The notes under the pieces are model-generated. The model saw nothing but the letters and a program-made list of their open reading frames with translations, was not told the DNA's origin and did not search any database. A stretch of 33,509 nt of DNA from a virus. Taxonomy: Duplodnaviria > Heunggongvirae > Uroviricota > Caudoviricetes. The position numbers were made by a program, and so were the translations under genes. Below, piece after piece: positions 2,917 to 28,503 of this stretch. How positions within the stretch are numbered: the first letter of the stretch is position 1; each line of letters starts with the position of its first letter. Location of the stretch: IMG/VR virus record IMGVR_UViG_2778261537_000013. One strand, 5' to 3'.

Positions 2917-3073
2917 TTGTTCCCTCCCTGTGCGGCATGGTCGCATGTGCGTGTGGAGGGGGTTACTGCTTTTTGTTGTCGTCGAATCGGGAGAACGGCG
3001 CAGGGGTGAGATTACGCGCGTGGTGGGTGATGATTGTTGCCGAATCATTTAACGGATACAAGGGGCTGAAGCT

Positions 3074-20543: not shown

Positions 20544-22295
20544 ATGATTCAGGACGCTTTTGTGCGCCAGCGTGCGCGGCAACTTTACTGGCAGGGTTAT
20601 CCGCCCGCAGAAATATCACGTCTGATGGGAATAAACCCGAACACGATTTATGCGTGGAAAAAACGCGACCAGTGGGATGAAACACCACCCGTGCAGCGTG
20701 TCACGCAGTCCATCGATGCGCGCCTCATCCAGCTTACTGAAAAACAGAATAAAACAGGCGGTGACTTTAAGGAAATAGACCTGCTGACCCGGCAGCTTAA
20801 AAAGCTGCATGATGGCCAGCCGGATGTGATGGCCGCAGGAAAGAAAGGCCGGGCGAAAAAACTCAAAAATCATTTCACGCCGGAACAGATTTCCGCACTG
20901 CGGGAAAAAATCATCAGCAGGCTGGAGTGGCATCAGCGGGGCTGGTTTGACTCCCTGACCCTTTGCAGGGAAGCCGGGATACGTAACAGGATGATCCTGA
21001 AATCCCGACAGATTGGGGCGACCTGGTATTTTGCACAGGAAGCTCTGCTGATGGCGCTGCGTGACGATGTGGCGCAACCTTACCAGCGTAACCAGATTTT
21101 TTTGTCTGCGTCGCGTCGTCAGGCGTTCCAGTTTAAAAGCATTATTCAGAAGGCCGCGGCTGAAGTTGATGTGGAGCTGAAAGGGGGCGATAAAATCATC
21201 CTCTCCAACGGCGCAGAGCTGCATTTTCTCGGCACTTCTGCTGCGTCGGCACAGTCCTATACGGGCAATTTTTATTTTGATGAATTTTTCTGGGTCAGTC
21301 GCTTTGCTGAACTGCGCAAGGTGGCTGGCGCTATGGCAACCCTCAGCGGACTGCGGCGCACCTACTTCTCCACGCCATCCACCGAAACGCACGAGGCATA
21401 CGCCTACTGGAACGGCGACCGCTGGAACGAGAAAAAGGCCTCGCATAAACGCCAGCGTTTTTCTGTGGACTGGAAAACGCTGCATAACGGGCTTATCTGC
21501 CCTGACCGGACGTGGCGGCAAATTGTCACGCTGGAAGATGTGGTTAATCACGGCTGGAAACACACCGATATTGATGAAATTCGTGATGAAAACACCGAAG
21601 ACGAGTTCCTCAATCTCTATATGTGTGAGTTTGTCCGCGAAGGGGAATCGGCATTTAACCTGAATATCCTGATTGGCTGCGGTGTTGACGGATACGACGA
21701 CTGGAAAGACTGGAAACCTTTTGCTCCCCGCCCGATGGGGAATCGTCCGGTATGGATTGGGTATGACGCAAACGGCAGCAGTGGCAACGGCGACAGCGGC
21801 GCTGTGTCCGTGGTGGTTCCTCCGGCTGTTCCTGGTGGCCGTTTTCGAACGGTGGAGACGCGACGCGTTCAGGGGCTGGAGTTTGAAGAACAGGCCAGAG
21901 TCATTGAAGAGTTCACGTATCGCTACAACGTGGAACACATCGGCATTGATGTGACGGGCGGGAACGGGGAGGCTGTTTATCAGATAGTGAAACGGTTTTT
22001 CCCTGCTGCTATTCCGTACACCTTCACGCTGTCATCAAAACGGTCGCTGGTACTGAAAATGCTGCAAATAATGCGCGCCGGGCGGTGGGAATACGATCGC
22101 GCCGAACGCGAGCTGGTCGCGGCCTTTAACGCCGTGCGTAAGGTGAAAACACCGGGCGGCTTTATCACTTACGAAACGGACCGCGCGAGGGGGATCAGCC
22201 ACGGCGACCTTGCGTGGGCAACCATGCTTGCTGTCATTAACGAACCGATTGGCGGCGAAGGAGAAAACGAGCGTTTCACGGTTATGGAGTTCTGA
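20544..22295 (+). CDS. P: Terminase ATPase (large) subunit gpP
   Basis: 583 aa; P2 P-like size and position, divergent from O. Confidence 0.9.
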   Translation: MIQDAFVRQRARQLYWQGYPPAEISRLMGINPNTIYAWKKRDQWDETPPVQRVTQSIDARLIQLTEKQNKTGGDFKEIDLLTRQLKKLHDGQPDVMAAGKKGRAKKLKNHFTPEQISALREKIISRLEWHQRGWFDSLTLCREAGIRNRMILKSRQIGATWYFAQEALLMALRDDVAQPYQRNQIFLSASRRQAFQFKSIIQKAAAEVDVELKGGDKIILSNGAELHFLGTSAASAQSYTGNFYFDEFFWVSRFAELRKVAGAMATLSGLRRTYFSTPSTETHEAYAYWNGDRWNEKKASHKRQRFSVDWKTLHNGLICPDRTWRQIVTLEDVVNHGWKHTDIDEIRDENTEDEFLNLYMCEFVREGESAFNLNILIGCGVDGYDDWKDWKPFAPRPMGNRPVWIGYDANGSSGNGDSGAVSVVVPPAVPGGRFRTVETRRVQGLEFEEQARVIEEFTYRYNVEHIGIDVTGGNGEAVYQIVKRFFPAAIPYTFTLSSKRSLVLKMLQIMRAGRWEYDRAERELVAAFNAVRKVKTPGGFITYETDRARGISHGDLAWATMLAVINEPIGGEGENERFTVMEF

Positions 22296-23341
22296 TGAGC
22301 AGAAAAAATAAAAAAGTGCGCATGAGTTCACGCATTGATCTCGCTGATGCGCTCAGGAAAGAATCGTCGCTCAGTGCATTCACATTTGATGGGCCTTATC
22401 GCCTGACCGGGCATGACCTGCTGGATAATATGTACTGTGCTGATAACGGGCGGTGGTATGAAACCCCGGTGGACTGGTACGGTCTGGCAAGAGCTGCCCG
22501 GCAAACGTCCTGGCATCAGTCTGCGCTTTACTTTAAGCGCAATGTATTACTCGGTTGCTACATCCCGCACCCGCTGCTTTCCCGGCAGGATTTCTCGGCG
22601 CTGGCGCTGGACTGGTTTGTGTTCGGTAACGCATTCCTTGAGCTTCGAAGCAATATGCTCGGCGAACCGCTTAAATTACGGCACGCCCTGGCGAAATACA
22701 TGCGACGCGGAAGCGATCTTGAATCATGGTGGTATGTGCAGGATGGCCAGGGCGCGTTCCAGTTTCGCCCTGGCAAAGTGTGCCACCTGATGAATCCGGA
22801 TATTAACCAGGAAATCTACGGCATGCCGGAATATCTCGGCGCATTACTCTCGGCCAGCCTGTCTCATTCGGCGGACATGTTCAGAAAACTGTATTACGAC
22901 AACGGATCCCACGCCGGGTGCATCATCTACATCGGTGCAGCGCAGGTAAACCGCGAAAGCATGGACTCCCTGAAAGAAACGCTACAGGGGGCACGTGGTG
23001 GTGGTGCGTTTAAAAACGTGCTCATTCATGCGCCCAACGGGGGCAAAGAGGGGGTGCAAATTTTGCCGTTCCAGCAGATCACCGCAAAGGATGAGTTCAT
23101 GAATGTTAAGGCGGCATCCCGTGATGATGTGCTGGCTGCGCACCGTGTCCCGCCGCAACTGATGGGGGCGATGCCGGGTGAAAAAAGTGCGTTTGGTGAT
23201 GTGGAGAAGGCCGCGCGGGTTTACGCAATTAACGAGCTGATGCCCGTCATGGAGGCCATGAAGCACATCAATGACTGGCTTGGCGAAGAGGTGATCCGCT
23301 TTAACCCTTATGCACTGCTGGACACCCAGCCCACATCCTGA
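22295..23341 (+). CDS. Q: Portal protein gpQ
   Basis: 348 aa directly after P with an overlapping stop/start; P2 Q-like. Confidence 0.9.
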   Translation: MSRKNKKVRMSSRIDLADALRKESSLSAFTFDGPYRLTGHDLLDNMYCADNGRWYETPVDWYGLARAARQTSWHQSALYFKRNVLLGCYIPHPLLSRQDFSALALDWFVFGNAFLELRSNMLGEPLKLRHALAKYMRRGSDLESWWYVQDGQGAFQFRPGKVCHLMNPDINQEIYGMPEYLGALLSASLSHSADMFRKLYYDNGSHAGCIIYIGAAQVNRESMDSLKETLQGARGGGAFKNVLIHAPNGGKEGVQILPFQQITAKDEFMNVKAASRDDVLAAHRVPPQLMGAMPGEKSAFGDVEKAARVYAINELMPVMEAMKHINDWLGEEVIRFNPYALLDTQPTS

Positions 23342-23366: not shown

Positions 23367-23393
23367 CCGGGGCATAAAAAATTTATGCCCCGG
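23367..23393. other. Strong stem-loop downstream of Q (12-bp stem, no clear U-tract)
   Basis: ccggggcataaa / tttatgccccgg with a 3-nt loop. Could be a transcript 3' end structure or part of the cos-proximal region. Confidence 0.45.
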
Positions 23394-23764
23394 CTCTCCA
23401 GCTCCTGTATCAGTCAGATAATTTCACGACGCTTTCCTGCTTATTGCCATCATCGACGGTCAGACTCTTACGCAATCCCACCGCGTTAACTGCATGTTCT
23501 CGCCGCCTCAGTGCGATTTTGACGGCCTTACCTTTCACCCCATCAAATCAAAAGCCCTCACGTCTTTTTCACGCTCAGCGTGAGAAATACAGCCATTCTG
23601 TTGTGTTGCTGCGACATCGTTCAGGGGATGCTATTTACCCCCTGAAACGCGGGCTGTTCCCCCGTCACCTGCGCGCAGAAAAAACGCGTTTTTTTGTGCA
23701 CGCACGGATCCTTGACGGATCCAGCCGCCATGCGGGCCGGAAGGGTAAAAAGTCGTTCAAAAAA

Positions 23765-23791
23765 ATTGTGCAAATTTGTGCACTATTGTGC
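23765..23791. repeat. Three helically phased TTGTGCA repeats (10-bp spacing)
   Basis: TTGTGCA occurs at 23765, 23775 and 23785 in the noncoding region between Q and the accessory genes. Confidence 0.5.
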
Positions 23792-23825
23792 ATTGAAATA
23801 AATGCCCTGGAGGAGGGCGTTTTAC

Positions 23826-24233: not shown

Positions 24234-24303
24234 GCTTTTTTTCCTTTTTCTCTGTCAATGTGTTGCATTGTGTCCCCCTTGTTTATGTTCCCGGATTAAA
24301 GTC

Positions 24304-24325
24304 ATCAGGGCGGATGCGCCCTGAT
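24304..24325 (-). terminator. Candidate terminator hairpin after parR
   Basis: 9-bp stem atcagggcg / cgccctgat with a 4-nt loop, immediately 3' of the parR stop on the minus strand. The U-tract is weak. Confidence 0.4.
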
Positions 24326-24331
24326 GTTGTG

Positions 24332-24640
24332 TTATTCGGGAAATAACGCCCGGATATTCCCGGCCATCTGGCTGGTTATCTGTGTGGTTGGTACTGGTTG
24401 TGGCGCGTTCTGTTCTACTCTGTTTTGTACCACGGCCAACTCATCGTCAGCCCATGCAGCCAGTCGGTAAGCCTCTGCCGGATTCATTTTCAGAAGTGCC
24501 AGCCCGGCCAGAAAAGCCACGCGTTGGCCGCTTTTGCGGGCTTCTGGTGTAAGGCTGTCCAGCCAGGCGCATGCTTCGCCTTCGTTCTTGACGGCGGCGG
24601 GCTTCAGATAGAAACTTATCCGTCTGGTTGGTGTCGTCAT
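24332..24640 (-). CDS. parR: ParR-like partition adaptor (centromere-binding protein)
   Basis: 102 aa from ATG 24640 (preceded by AAGGAG, 5 nt after the parM stop). RRISFYLKPAAV...LDSLTPEARKSGQRVAFLAGLAL...NIRALFPE parallels recalled plasmid R1 ParR (RRTIAFKLNPDV...LDSIP.GERS...ALTAGLAL...LRSLFP). Confidence 0.65.
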   Translation of the reverse strand: MTTPTRRISFYLKPAAVKNEGEACAWLDSLTPEARKSGQRVAFLAGLALLKMNPAEAYRLAAWADDELAVVQNRVEQNAPQPVPTTQITSQMAGNIRALFPE

Positions 24641-24644
24641 TGGT

Positions 24645-25604
24645 TTACTCCTTGTCCATTGCGTACAGCCCATTAACCAGAGCAAACTGTGGCACCCCGT
24701 CCGCGATGAAAGTCGCATTAACTCCGCAGGCTTCGCGGATAGCGGGTGCCACAATCTCCGCCCCTCCACCGACAACCATCACCCGCCCGTAACCCGAAAA
24801 AACCGCCAGCGCGCGGATCACGCGTTGTTTCAGTGTTTCTTCCTTTTCACGAATAACCGCCATCAGGCTGGCGTAATGCGCGTCATTGTGGATGTGCTGG
24901 CGCAGCCAGGCTTCATCATGGCGATGTTCGATAATGGTATTGGCGATGTGGTGACTGGTGCGCATACCGTTAGTGGCCATCACCGACAGTACGGCATCGG
25001 CCATCAGAGAAACGCCTACGTGTGGATCGCAAAACACCTGGCTGATACCTGCCAGTTGCCCCTGAACCTTTGCCACATCCAGCGTGGTTCCGCCCAAATC
25101 CACAATCAGCAGGGATTCAAACGGACTCATGTCAGCCAGTGCCTTAAAGCCAGCCGGAATGGATTCAGGCATAACCCGCACGTTACGGATAGTGAATGCT
25201 TCGCCGTTCTGGTACTCCACCGGGCGCATAACGTTCGCTTTTTTGCGGTTGATGTTGGCCATGTCCGGCTGTGCGTTTGTGTCGAAATACTCGCTCAGTG
25301 GCAGGGTGACAACCACATCCACCTCCTGTGGCGTGATGCCTGATTTGACCAGCGCGTGATGAATGGCAATGACATTCACATCGCTGTATTGGTATTGCGT
25401 GTCGGTTGTCTGGACAAAGCGATCGCTGACCGGATCAAAACCATAGCGCACGCCATCAAGCATGTAGTTCGCGGGCTGCATGCCACCGAACGGCGCAGAC
25501 CATTCCGACTTGAAGCTGTTCGGGCTGATGGCGTTGCGGCGTTCGCCGTTCTCAGTCCATGCCAGCTTGATGTTGGTGGAGCCGTCGTCGATACAAATTT
25601 TCAT
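24645..25604 (-). CDS. parM: ParM/StbA-family actin-like segregation ATPase
   Basis: 319 aa with ParM hallmark motifs in order: MKICIDDGSTNIKLAW, SPNSF, YSDVNVIAIHHAL, VMPESIPAG, LIVDLGGTTLD, GVSL, VMVVGGGAEI, LVNGLY. Confidence 0.85.
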   Translation of the reverse strand: MKICIDDGSTNIKLAWTENGERRNAISPNSFKSEWSAPFGGMQPANYMLDGVRYGFDPVSDRFVQTTDTQYQYSDVNVIAIHHALVKSGITPQEVDVVVTLPLSEYFDTNAQPDMANINRKKANVMRPVEYQNGEAFTIRNVRVMPESIPAGFKALADMSPFESLLIVDLGGTTLDVAKVQGQLAGISQVFCDPHVGVSLMADAVLSVMATNGMRTSHHIANTIIEHRHDEAWLRQHIHNDAHYASLMAVIREKEETLKQRVIRALAVFSGYGRVMVVGGGAEIVAPAIREACGVNATFIADGVPQFALVNGLYAMDKE

Positions 25605-25636
25605 GTCGCTTTTCCTTATGTTGATTAATTAATCGG

Positions 25637-25747
25637 TTACGGGATTCTGAAATCCCGTTTTTGTCTGTTTTGTGCGCGCTTCATATATCACTGCGCGTTT
25701 TTTGCTCATTTACGGGATTCGTGAGTCCCGTTTCTGTCTGTTTTTTG
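25637..25747. repeat. Two ~38-bp direct repeats, each with a GGGATT/AATCCC-type dyad, upstream of parM (candidate parC-like site)
   Basis: ttacgggattctgaaatcccgtttttgtctgttttgtg (25637..25674) and ttacgggattcgtgagtcccgtttctgtctgttttttg (25710..25747), roughly 33 of 38 identical. The second copy lies inside the 3' end of the A reading frame. Confidence 0.5.
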
Positions 25748-28503
25748 TTTCCGCTGGTCAGGCCACCCCGCAGCAGGTCTGCTTTGCGGCGGGCGCGTTC
25801 AGTGGTTTCACTGATTCTCTGTGCGTGCTCTGCGTCGCGGATGGCGCGCAGCATGTCAGAAAGCACGGTAACGGGTGTTTTCATGGTGTTCTGGTCCTGC
25901 TGAAGTGTGGATGCCAGGCGTGCGGCGGCTTCAGGGTCTGATGCCCCCAGCTGTGCTAGATAGTTGGCGACCGGGTTATGGCGGATCTCCGTGCTGCTTA
26001 CGCCGTGATTACGGCTCAGGCGCTGCCAGAGCTGCGTGATTTGGCTGTCCGGGCGGGTATCCGGTTTGCGTACAATTTCAAATCCCTGCGGTGCAATGAT
26101 GCTGCCGTCAACGTACAGACTGCCGCCCCGTAACAGGTGCTGCATCTGTTGTTCACCGATATGCAGGCCGAGAGATTCAGCAGACTCCCGCCATTCTTTA
26201 GCGAGTAACTCGTGGTTATCAGGCAAAGGTCGCGGCTGTTTGCGGCTCTGTGTCCAGTTCTGCATTTCATCACTGTTGTTTTTTGCCTGTTTGTCACGCA
26301 GCGAACGCATCAGCGCCCGGCGTTCGTGCCGTTTCAGTGAGTGCAGCCATTCGTTCACTTCAACACCGTCAGGGATCTGCGGCCACGGTGCTGGCCGTTC
26401 TTCCGGCTGTTCTGTCCCGTTGTTGTCCGTTTCCTGTACACGGGGACAGTTATTGCCACGAGTCCAAGGGGCGGCAGGGCCGCCCTGAAGGTCAAAACCA
26501 TTTTCGCGGGCGCTGTCTTCCGCTTCCGGTTTGCGTCTTACCAGCTTCCAGTTATCCGGATGCGTGCACACACGGGAGGATTCCCCGATGAGTGGTGACC
26601 AGATCCCGTAAATCTGTACACTCTGCTCGCCGTAATCGTTCAGTTCATCTGCGAGGTCGTAGGCGGTGCGAATCAGGTAGTCCTTGCGTGGAACAAGCAC
26701 GCCACCCTGTTTTTCAATGTAGGTGGCAAAACACCCGGCATCAGCGGCAGCGAGTACCGCATCCATTGCGTCATCCTTCAGGCGTTGCGGGCCTTCCGGG
26801 TTGCGTGCCATCTGGCTGGCAAGGCGACGCAGTTCACGCCACACCTGACGGGAGGGGATACCAAAGAACTGGAACTGGCGGACGCGGTGAAGGCGCGCCC
26901 AGCCGATGGCGCGTTCCACGCTCTCGGCCATTGATTTTCCGGTTTCGTGGTCAACGCGTGGTTTGCCCGTTTTCGGGTCGATGCCATCCACGGCGCGGCT
27001 GTCCAGGTTCTTTCCGATGTAGGTGGCGATGTAGCTGGTTGGCGTGCCTTTTGAGCCGTCTACGTACTCCGCCTTAAAACGAGGAGTTATGTCATCGCCC
27101 AGCTCGTGGCGGTCTTCCTGAATGGCAATATCGCAGACGTGGGACACGATGGTTTCAATCTCGTCCGGATGTGCAAAGACCATCATATGCCAGTGCACGG
27201 TGCCGTCATGGTGAGGCTCCACCGTGCGGATGCCATACCAGCGAAGACCGTCGCGGTTCAGTTTTTTGCGGACCGCCGCAAAAAACATGTTAACCAGGTA
27301 ATCGCTGGAGTCGCGCATGGTGGCCCCGTTCCATTTGGGGTTCGGATGACCGTTCTCCGTTGTTGCGTGGTATTTTGACGGGCAGGTGACAGTCAGAAAC
27401 ACCGCTCTGTCGCCACGGGCTTCGGCCAGAAGTTCCAGCCCCTTCATGGTGGCCATCATTTCTGCTTTACGGTGGACCGGGTTACTTACTCCCGCGTAAT
27501 ACACCGTCTCGAGATCAATCGTGAACCCGTCTTCATTTTCCAGCATGAAACTTTTCAGGAAATCGCGTGTTTTCTCACGCTGTGCGCGAAACTCGCTTAA
27601 CGCGTCCTGGCTCAGATAGGGCGATGTTTTTCTGGAAACCAGACAGGCGGCGCGGAGTTGTTCTTCTCTCCACTCGCAACGTAACAGCCACAGTTTGCGT
27701 TTCCACCATTCCGCACAGGTCAGGCGAAGGATTGCGCCCGGCAGCAGCTCCGTGTCCGGTTCGTTCCTCCGGTCTTTGTCTGTTGTCAGAGCGTCATAAT
27801 GTGGAGGCATAGCGTGCAGGTGTAACGCCATGCGGGCTAGCATCTGATACGCCTTCAGTGTTACATCCATGGTCAGCTCGCCATCAGTCGCGCCAAAGCC
27901 ATCGCAGAGCTTTTCGAAGGTGCTGCTGAACATCGCCGCCGTCATGGTGGCCAGCGTCTGTATCTGGTGTTTGTTGAGCTGCGGCAGGTAAAGCAAATCG
28001 TCCAGGCGTTCGCGTCCGGCAAGGGAGCGATAACCCGGTGTCAGCCAGCGTCCGTCAGTGCGATCCAGACGTTCGAATATTTTGCGCAGGGTTCCGCGTG
28101 CATAGCGTTCCGCCTGCCAGCTCTTTTTGCCTTTCCGGCGATCGGCTTCCTGTTTTTTGCGAAGGAAGGAGAGGTGGCGAATAAGCGGATCGCGCAGATA
28201 GGACGGCAGCAGGCGCAGCGAGGCCATGGCTTCATCCACCGCGCCGCGTGCCTGTTTTCTGGCGTCTCCTGCCAGTGTGATGGTTTTGTCCTGTTTTTCC
28301 TGTGCGTCCAGGCTTTTATTAATCAGGTTGCCCAGCGGCGTGGCGGAGAACGCCGCATCAGCCATTTCCTGGCGGCGCTCGTTCTCTGCCCGGTAGGCAT
28401 CCAGCCAGGAGGAAAGTGCGGATTCAGGAGCGGGGATCCCCGTTCCTTCACGCCCCACTGCGTGGCGCGGTTGTTGCCAGTCCCTGATGTACTCTGCCGT
28501 CAT
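25681..28503 (-). CDS. A: Replication initiation protein gpA (rolling-circle type endonuclease)
   Basis: 940-aa ORF in the P2 A position at the end of the early operon. Longer than P2 A (761 aa), so the C-terminal extension is uncertain. Confidence 0.85.
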   Translation of the reverse strand: MTAEYIRDWQQPRHAVGREGTGIPAPESALSSWLDAYRAENERRQEMADAAFSATPLGNLINKSLDAQEKQDKTITLAGDARKQARGAVDEAMASLRLLPSYLRDPLIRHLSFLRKKQEADRRKGKKSWQAERYARGTLRKIFERLDRTDGRWLTPGYRSLAGRERLDDLLYLPQLNKHQIQTLATMTAAMFSSTFEKLCDGFGATDGELTMDVTLKAYQMLARMALHLHAMPPHYDALTTDKDRRNEPDTELLPGAILRLTCAEWWKRKLWLLRCEWREEQLRAACLVSRKTSPYLSQDALSEFRAQREKTRDFLKSFMLENEDGFTIDLETVYYAGVSNPVHRKAEMMATMKGLELLAEARGDRAVFLTVTCPSKYHATTENGHPNPKWNGATMRDSSDYLVNMFFAAVRKKLNRDGLRWYGIRTVEPHHDGTVHWHMMVFAHPDEIETIVSHVCDIAIQEDRHELGDDITPRFKAEYVDGSKGTPTSYIATYIGKNLDSRAVDGIDPKTGKPRVDHETGKSMAESVERAIGWARLHRVRQFQFFGIPSRQVWRELRRLASQMARNPEGPQRLKDDAMDAVLAAADAGCFATYIEKQGGVLVPRKDYLIRTAYDLADELNDYGEQSVQIYGIWSPLIGESSRVCTHPDNWKLVRRKPEAEDSARENGFDLQGGPAAPWTRGNNCPRVQETDNNGTEQPEERPAPWPQIPDGVEVNEWLHSLKRHERRALMRSLRDKQAKNNSDEMQNWTQSRKQPRPLPDNHELLAKEWRESAESLGLHIGEQQMQHLLRGGSLYVDGSIIAPQGFEIVRKPDTRPDSQITQLWQRLSRNHGVSSTEIRHNPVANYLAQLGASDPEAAARLASTLQQDQNTMKTPVTVLSDMLRAIRDAEHAQRISETTERARRKADLLRGGLTSGNKKQTETGLTNPVNEQKTRSDI

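Follow-up and report, generated by a model that had tools for sequence, protein, structure and literature searches.

The stretch of DNA considered here, IMG/VR virus record IMGVR_UViG_2778261537_000013 with its full length of 33,509 nucleotides (the window), carries the partition genes parM and parR next to the replication gene A, and the element in question is a pair of 38-bp repeat units directly upstream of parM that form a candidate binding site for the ParR protein. The genome type is that of a P88-like Xuanwuvirus prophage (Peduoviridae, P2-like); the region is 95 to 98% identical to Escherichia phage P88 and other Xuanwuvirus members, and the orientation of the window is the reverse of the P2 map. 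The genes and features are arranged in the order A, repeat units, parM, parR, with the start codon of parR only 4 nt past the parM stop (Table 1). The parMR genes fill the slot between A and cos, which harbors orf91, tin, and old in P2. The cargo of both phages is thus placed alike, but in P2, tin and old are transcribed toward A from a promoter of their own, whereas the par cassette is co-directional with A and fused to the end of the A open reading frame (ORF).

Table 1. Features of the par locus and its surroundings, with positions in the window (L093 and L094 are relatives that share the A core and carry other cargo)
Feature	Position	Strand	Remarks
Large terminase gene	20544-22295	+	
Portal gene	22295-23341	+	
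Hairpin with 10-bp stem	24303-24326		just past the parR stop; right end of the par operon; probable (bidirectional) terminator
135-aa ORF		-	listed after parR
parR (stbB)	24332-24640	-	ribbon-helix-helix adaptor, 102 aa; true start MTTPTRR; Pfam Plasmid_stab_B, 1.4e-23
parM (stbA)	24645-25604	-	actin-like partition ATPase, 319 aa; Pfam StbA_N, 2.7e-82, and ParM C-terminal, 6.3e-69 (full-length)
parM leader	25605-25636	-	Shine-Dalgarno sequence AAGGAA at 25613-25618, read from the sequence
Proximal 38-bp unit	25637-25674		TTACGGGATTCTGAAATCCCGTTTTTGTCTGTTTTGTG; intergenic; ends 32 bp ahead of the parM start codon; repeat search
Proximal dyad	25639-25658		ACGGGATT-CTGA-AATCCCGT; perfect 8-bp arms
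Spacer between the units (35 bp)	25675-25709		holds the A stop codon and a GCGCGC...GCGCG mini-dyad; poor sequence conservation, length kept
Distal 38-bp unit	25710-25747		TTACGGGATTCGTGAGTCCCGTTTCTGTCTGTTTTTTG; inside the last ~22 codons of A; left edge of the par cassette; repeat search
Distal dyad	25712-25731		ACGGGATT-CGTG-AGTCCCGT; 8 pairs, one G.T on the plus strand; invariant core GGGA..-N4-..TCCC
Last ~32 codons of A	25684-25780	-	supplied by the cassette rather than by the A core; homology with the par-less L093 and L094 ends there
Replication gene A	25681-28503	-	940 aa; Phage_GPA, 2.4e-129; stop codon 25681-25683
P2-type nick-site homolog	26446-26475	-	GCCGCCCCTTGGACTCGTGGCAATAACTGT; in the homologous part of A; closely resembles the annotated P2 site

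A repeat search returned the units as the sequence-only reading of this DNA had described them, i.e., as two near-identical 38-bp copies of a dyad plus a T-rich stretch, 73 bp apart. This distance runs from start to start, and both copies are placed within 143 bp upstream of the parM ATG. The same reading had assigned one copy to the intergenic region and the other to the last codons of A, and the A stop codon indeed lies between them. The copies agree at 32 of 38 positions (84%), well above what chance would yield: among 300 first-order Markov randomizations of the 801-bp region, no 38-nt window scored higher than 25/38. Each unit has the form GGGATT-N4-A(A/G)TCCC, followed by the T-rich tail on the plus strand. 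A perfect 8-bp stem by itself is not rare, with about nine such loci in the 33.5-kb window. The unusual part is the duplication of the dyad and its conservation, not the stem itself, and no further copies of the dyad or the tail were found elsewhere in the window.

With respect to their distribution, a 181-bp query spanning the units matched 1,304 of 5,426 complete Escherichia coli genomes, at 1,442 chromosomal places versus 2 on plasmids and always between genes for a "replication endonuclease" and "ParM." The units were likewise confined to the A/parM junction in the plasmid and phage collections, which removes the concern, voiced in the sequence-only reading, that they might be a common element of unrelated loci. 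Strains of O157:H7, O104:H4, O111, and O145 are among the hosts of the unit-bearing prophage. A tblastn search of phages with ParM returned only P88-like phages and the phage-plasmid D6, and a scan of genome contigs with the ParR alignment gave three loci only, indicating that this ParR type is phylogenetically narrow; a literature search found no paper on the par genes of P88-like phages. One circular record of 34,461 bp that was submitted as an E. coli plasmid (NZ_CP148288.1 [L091]) is an entire P88-like phage with integrase, A, parM, and parR and represents either an excised circle captured by the assembly or a genuine episomal state. Locus L092 (NZ_CP085183.1) belongs to a defective prophage in which a deletion of the early genes, A, and both units joins a DUF4761 gene to the parM leader. 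A parM without units (H181) proved to belong to a deleted, defective prophage and is uninformative.

The 3' part of A matches 1,372 E. coli genomes, about 68 more than the units, and relatives of the phage that share the A core and carry other cargo reveal where the homology ends. Alternative cargo is known from two examined genomes: A is followed in L093 by a Dam methylase and an AAA-family ATPase gene, co-directional with A (152-2712), and in L094 by three hypothetical genes, convergent with A (387-2914). Neither genome has the units, and in both of them DNA and protein identity with the window runs to ...ETTERARRKA (about position 25780), with none beyond; A of L094 stops nine codons past this point. 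The point of cargo exchange falls inside the A ORF. In a further lineage represented by three complete genomes (L055), A ends about 150 codons earlier and is followed by an unrelated 155-aa ORF (2457-2924) with two CxxC pairs and without a significant match in Pfam (DUF6858, E = 0.03). The end of this ORF, ...EKQTKTGFTNPVNEQKTRSDI, equals the A tail of the window, including the repeat-encoded tail KQTKTGFTNPVNEQKTRSDI, and its last 20 residues come from the distal unit. The other 1,301 of the 1,304 genomes match L055 only from its position 2860, i.e., the first base of the distal unit. These comparisons support the earlier proposal of a module insertion immediately at the A terminus.

Nucleotide diversity in the A tail lacks a codon-position bias (0.047 at third versus 0.040 at first and second positions), whereas the corresponding values are 0.061 versus 0.025 for the A core and 0.048 versus 0.005 for parM, the latter reflecting strong purifying selection. 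The A gene of a Hafnia-type relative has its stop in the loop of the distal dyad. Since the par-less relatives diverge at about 25780, the homology of L055 sets in at the edge of a unit, and the A tail is free of codon bias, the repeat units are part of the par cassette rather than of A, and the upstream ORF appears simply to read into the cassette until a stop is reached. The locus represents a clean case of cargo exchange at the A end, with a C-terminal tail of A that is supplied by the following cassette and is currently missed by annotation pipelines.

The footprint of the units is visible only in comparison with the Hafnia-type relative, whose ParM and ParR are 94% and 75% identical to the proteins of the window; the comparison within E. 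coli is shallow. Identity to the window amounts to 79% for the distal unit, 87% for the proximal unit, and 72% for the leader, compared with 57% for the spacer, 52% for the A tail, and 52% for the preceding A sequence. The spacing of the units is again exactly 73 bp from start to start, and the pattern conserved on the parM strand is AACARRCARAARCGGGAYT-N4-AATCCC. Because conserved islands keep a fixed spacing across a drifting spacer, these data indicate selection on the units and on their helical phase (73 bp, about seven turns). Within E. coli, the units vary mostly in the loop and at the outer ends of the stem, and the core CGGGA...TCC is nearly invariant. A unit has been lost in 1 of 76 viral loci (L035, about 2920-3000) by an exact 73-bp deletion, resulting in a natural allele with a single hybrid unit and an A end of ...KKQTKTGFKNPVTD. 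In L055 (2860-2960), the identical substitution ACAGGATT is present in the distal and the proximal dyad, and in two other viral loci, the two units are altered at one and the same arm position; such matched changes suggest gene conversion or parallel selection between the units.

The composition of the locus is that of a type II (ParMRC) partition system, with an actin-like ParM, ParR encoded directly downstream, and a repeated region directly upstream of parM. The two proteins are bona fide homologs of ParM and ParR and are subject to purifying selection. ParM is 47 to 52% identical to ParM proteins of plasmids. ParR shares 27% identity and the same N-terminal pattern with R1-type ParR, and the best solved-structure match of a profile of the ParR alleles in the PDB was 2JD3, named "STBB PROTEIN" (E = 0.0022, residues 9 to 75), which we take to be the structure of the pB171 ParR. 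The AlphaFold2 model of the ParR monomer (11 alleles) reached a pLDDT of 55 and is too poor to serve as evidence for the fold. Within the phage group, the overall identity of ParR alleles drops to 44 to 57%, with differences of up to 50% noted. This divergence resides in the linker, residues ~66 to 93 (24332-24445), which is hypervariable between otherwise near-identical prophages, and a recombination breakpoint is located inside parR. Conserved are the beta-strand RRISFYLKP, most of residues 1 to 65, and the C-terminal NIRALFPE; the C terminus of the R1 ParR contacts ParM. The DNA-binding region of ParR is thus conserved across the alleles while the site is unchanged in all lineages.

A partition site is conceptually expected wherever parMR genes occur, and we estimate a probability of about 0.5 that the two units serve a mobile parMR cassette as a parC-like ParR binding site and perhaps as an operator too. 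This interpretation fits the position of the units, the homology of ParR, and the phylogenetic footprint. Each unit would be bound by ParR dimers, with the GGGATT-N4-AATCCC palindrome (recognized by a dimer of dimers), the neighboring CG(Y)TTTYGYCTGTTTT tail, or both as the target, and ParM filaments would capture the ParR-unit complex and move sister circular, non-integrated phage genomes apart. Such segregation would accompany replication, following infection or induction, or would occur while the phage is transiently episomal. The par genes would probably be transcribed by read-through from A, as a consensus scan detected no sense-strand terminator between A and parM. Because no recognizable promoter was found there either and a terminator-like hairpin follows parR, cotranscription of A, parM, and parR with the early operon would be the simplest reading, and ParMR would then be expressed in the replicative phase rather than in the lysogen. 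A more specific version, according to which the units form a minimal palindromic two-unit centromere, seven helical turns apart, that segregates phage circles or interferes with plasmids carrying related sites, seems rather unlikely; if true, the binding mode of this ParR would be unlike the direct-iteron arrays of all characterized ParR proteins.

A number of observations weigh against a ParR site. Just two long units with an internal inverted repeat are present, unlike the characterized arrays of direct 10- to 20-bp repeats, and no 10- or 11-bp periodicity was found in the units, where only the lag of 73 stands out. The phasing of A-tracts (resultants of 0.46 to 0.68) is unconvincing too, and R1-like 11-bp iterons were dropped as a demonstrable feature on the basis of these analyses of sub-repeat periodicity and phasing. 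An operator would be without an obvious target, as the consensus scan of the minus strand from 25605 to 26300 found no sigma-70 promoter; by eye, a weak candidate with 8 of 12 matching positions, TTCAGA-17-ATTAAT, overlaps the proximal dyad. The conserved unit comprises exactly the hairpin and the T-rich tail and thus also has the look of a terminator, and a T-rich motif shared with plasmid loci, which is described below, is present in one or two copies per locus and is oriented oppositely with respect to parM. Within E. coli, the diversity of the units (0.035 to 0.075) is not below the synonymous level (0.048 to 0.061). No covariation was detected between the N-terminal type of ParR and the dyad haplotype, since both types occur with every haplotype, but this finding would also fit one unchanged specificity. 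Finally, the prophage is integrated in nearly all genomes, so that a need for partition is not obvious.

The sequence-only reading had pointed out that the units resemble hairpin-plus-T-run terminators on the plus strand and that no plus-strand gene precedes them, and both observations hold. As tandem Rho-independent terminators, the units would insulate the early/replication operon from antisense transcription through the par genes, which would come, for example, from late-operon read-through across cos or start at an antisense promoter inside parM. Both units are picked out by the consensus scan, on the plus strand only (-10.2 to -10.6 kcal/mol), and the conserved unit equals an 8-bp GC-containing stem, a 4-nt loop, and a T-rich tail. 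The outer stem changes of the Hafnia-type relative result in G.U on the plus strand and C.A on the other, and the cargo of P2 and L094, convergent with A, provides a precedent for this orientation at the A end. The sole plus-strand ORF ahead of the units (25356-25628), however, is antisense to parM, not conserved, and cut to 47 aa in the Hafnia-type relative, and the interval from the late operon to parM already contains stronger plus-strand hairpins, at 23369, 23800, and 24303. Furthermore, conservation continues for 16 nt past the stem and includes fixed G positions, more than a U-tract would require, and the fixed 73-bp spacing would have no role. In 14 of 76 loci, the haplotype GCGGGATT...AATCCTGT, which is common in E. 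coli, weakens the plus-strand stem of the proximal unit to -5.0 kcal/mol and interrupts the T-run (CUUUUGCC). A function as terminators is considered quite unlikely. Exactly this haplotype pairs on the parM strand only via G.U, as would suit an element of the sense-strand A-parM-parR mRNA whose stem-loops, or a 20-bp long-range duplex, would affect processing or stability (e.g., by RNase III) or would set the translation of parM independently of A. The two strands differ little in hairpin energy (about -9 to -11 kcal/mol); the sense-strand hairpins have -9 to -10.7 kcal/mol (z of -2.5 to -2.7), a folding energy of -30.8 kcal/mol (z = -4.5) was obtained for the 146-nt region, and a polycistronic RNA is likely given the lack of a sense-strand terminator or promoter between A and parM. 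But the low folding energy of the region follows automatically from a repeated palindrome, the conserved A-rich flank is left unexplained, and no Rfam family matched at E <= 1. The distal stem of the window and both Hafnia-type stems are opposite to the haplotype, with G.U on the plus strand and C.A mismatches on the parM strand, and no compensatory double changes were seen in the stems, whose 6+6 core is invariant and without covariation. Since the substitutions favor neither strand consistently and compensatory changes are missing, the pattern, in what is a small sample, looks to us more like a palindrome recognized in duplex DNA than like an RNA or DNA hairpin, and an mRNA element appears very unlikely.

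The units could also be bound by another protein of host or phage, or they could be a functionless recombination scar or duplication at a hot spot of cargo exchange. Their location exactly at a mosaic junction, the natural 73-bp inter-unit deletion of L035, the same substitution in both dyads of L055, which suggests gene conversion, and the unreduced diversity within the species are in agreement with this view. Conservation of the units in the Hafnia-type lineage at unchanged spacing, while spacer and flanks are not conserved, is unlike drift or a scar, and a unit was lost in only one of the viral loci. The dyad is absent from the immunity region and the rest of the phage, which makes a shared phage regulator unlikely, and the chances of this explanation as a whole are regarded as small. 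Most improbable is a role of the units as part of the rolling-circle origin of the A protein, even though the P2 origin lies inside the 3' part of A and origins typically feature direct repeats with dyads close to a Rep gene. The P2 nick site is annotated inside A, 427 bp before the stop (GCCGCGCC/TCGGAGTCCTGTCAATAACTGT), in the protein segment SGIAAPRSPVNNCGK, which is aligned to GGPAAPWTRGNNCPR of the A protein of the window. A search with the P2 nick-site 20-mer at up to three mismatches gave no match, and the homolog listed in Table 1 surfaced only via the aligned, protein-homologous part of A, where the DNA likeness between the window and P2 is much above the expectation from 31% protein identity. 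The nick site of the rolling-circle origin is thus likely to be found there, about 750 bp away from the units. The candidate origin function of the units was disfavored because of this homolog, because the units travel with parM in L055, and because they are absent beside the same A core in the relatives with other cargo (L093 and L094).

If the units are the ParR site, they would be the cis-acting part of a full actin-type partition machinery on a prophage that is present in about one-quarter of E. coli genomes, which raises the question of the role of a plasmid segregation system on a chromosomal prophage; the range of parC architectures known so far would be widened as well. Possible roles are the positioning of replicating phage circles, which has been proposed for AlpAC of the prophage CGP3, an episomal stage before integration, and a partition-based incompatibility versus plasmids.

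Apart from the units, three strong hairpins were observed in the interval from the portal gene to parR, at 23369-23391 (just past the portal stop), 23800-23822, and 24303-24326 (just past the parR stop), which are probable terminators dividing the late operon, the cos region, and the par operon. A short tandem array of about three copies of AAAATTGTGC with a period of 10 to 13 is located at 23747-23792 in the presumed cos-proximal noncoding region. The coding region of A contains a perfect palindrome at 27262-27285 (TTTTTTGCGGACCGCCGCAAAAAA), which has T6 and A6 flanks and resembles a bidirectional terminator inside an essential gene.

Among the known partition systems, the parC site of plasmid R1 has a length of 159 bp, is located just upstream of parM, and consists of a 39-bp promoter core that is flanked by two sets of five 11-bp iterons, each iteron binding one ParR dimer (PMC2241845). 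The phage locus resembles R1 in its homologous ParM (about 47% identity to the F-type plasmid L086/H38 as an R1-like reference) and ParR and in a region of about 156 bp that is found directly upstream of parM and is A-rich on the parM strand. Both systems have two repeat blocks, which are 35 bp apart in the phage and 39 bp apart in R1. However, the 2 x 5 contiguous iterons of R1 flank a clear sigma-70 promoter (TTGACT...TAAACT), whereas the phage has 2 x 38-bp units with an inverted repeat, no 11-bp periodicity, and no recognizable promoter, and its element is part of an integrated prophage with the distal unit inside the upstream ORF. Characterized ParR proteins bind arrays of direct 10- to 20-bp repeats, and the ParR of pB171 needs only two of them, 10-bp copies in direct orientation upstream of parM (PMC9426499). 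The two-site centromere of pB171 par1 is thus a precedent for the two units of the phage, but its repeats are 10 bp long and direct.

The nearest plasmid ParM proteins are those of IncL/M and IncI-gamma/K plasmids (52% identity), whose ParR has the beta-strand RKCSFYIYP compared with RRISFYLKP of the phage. Their regions upstream of parM, for which no characterization was found in the literature, share the motif CG(N)TTTTTGTCT with the phage, e.g., CGTCTTTTTGTCT and CGGTTTTTGTCT of the plasmids resemble CGTTTTTGTCT of the phage, and the IncL/M locus has three units that are 72 to 73 bp apart, as are those of the phage with 73 bp. The T-rich strand, on the other hand, is parM-sense in the plasmids and antisense in the phage, and the GGGATT-N4-AATCCC dyad is absent from the plasmids, so the motif likeness is suggestive only. 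A functional precedent on an integrating phage is provided by the AlpA/AlpC/alpS system of the Corynebacterium prophage CGP3, which is reported to support viral DNA transport and replication (PMC5539076). It corresponds to the P88-like locus in that the prophage encodes an actin-like filament and an adaptor that binds DNA, together with cis sites, but it comes from an unrelated phage in an unrelated host, and its cis sites are unrelated too.

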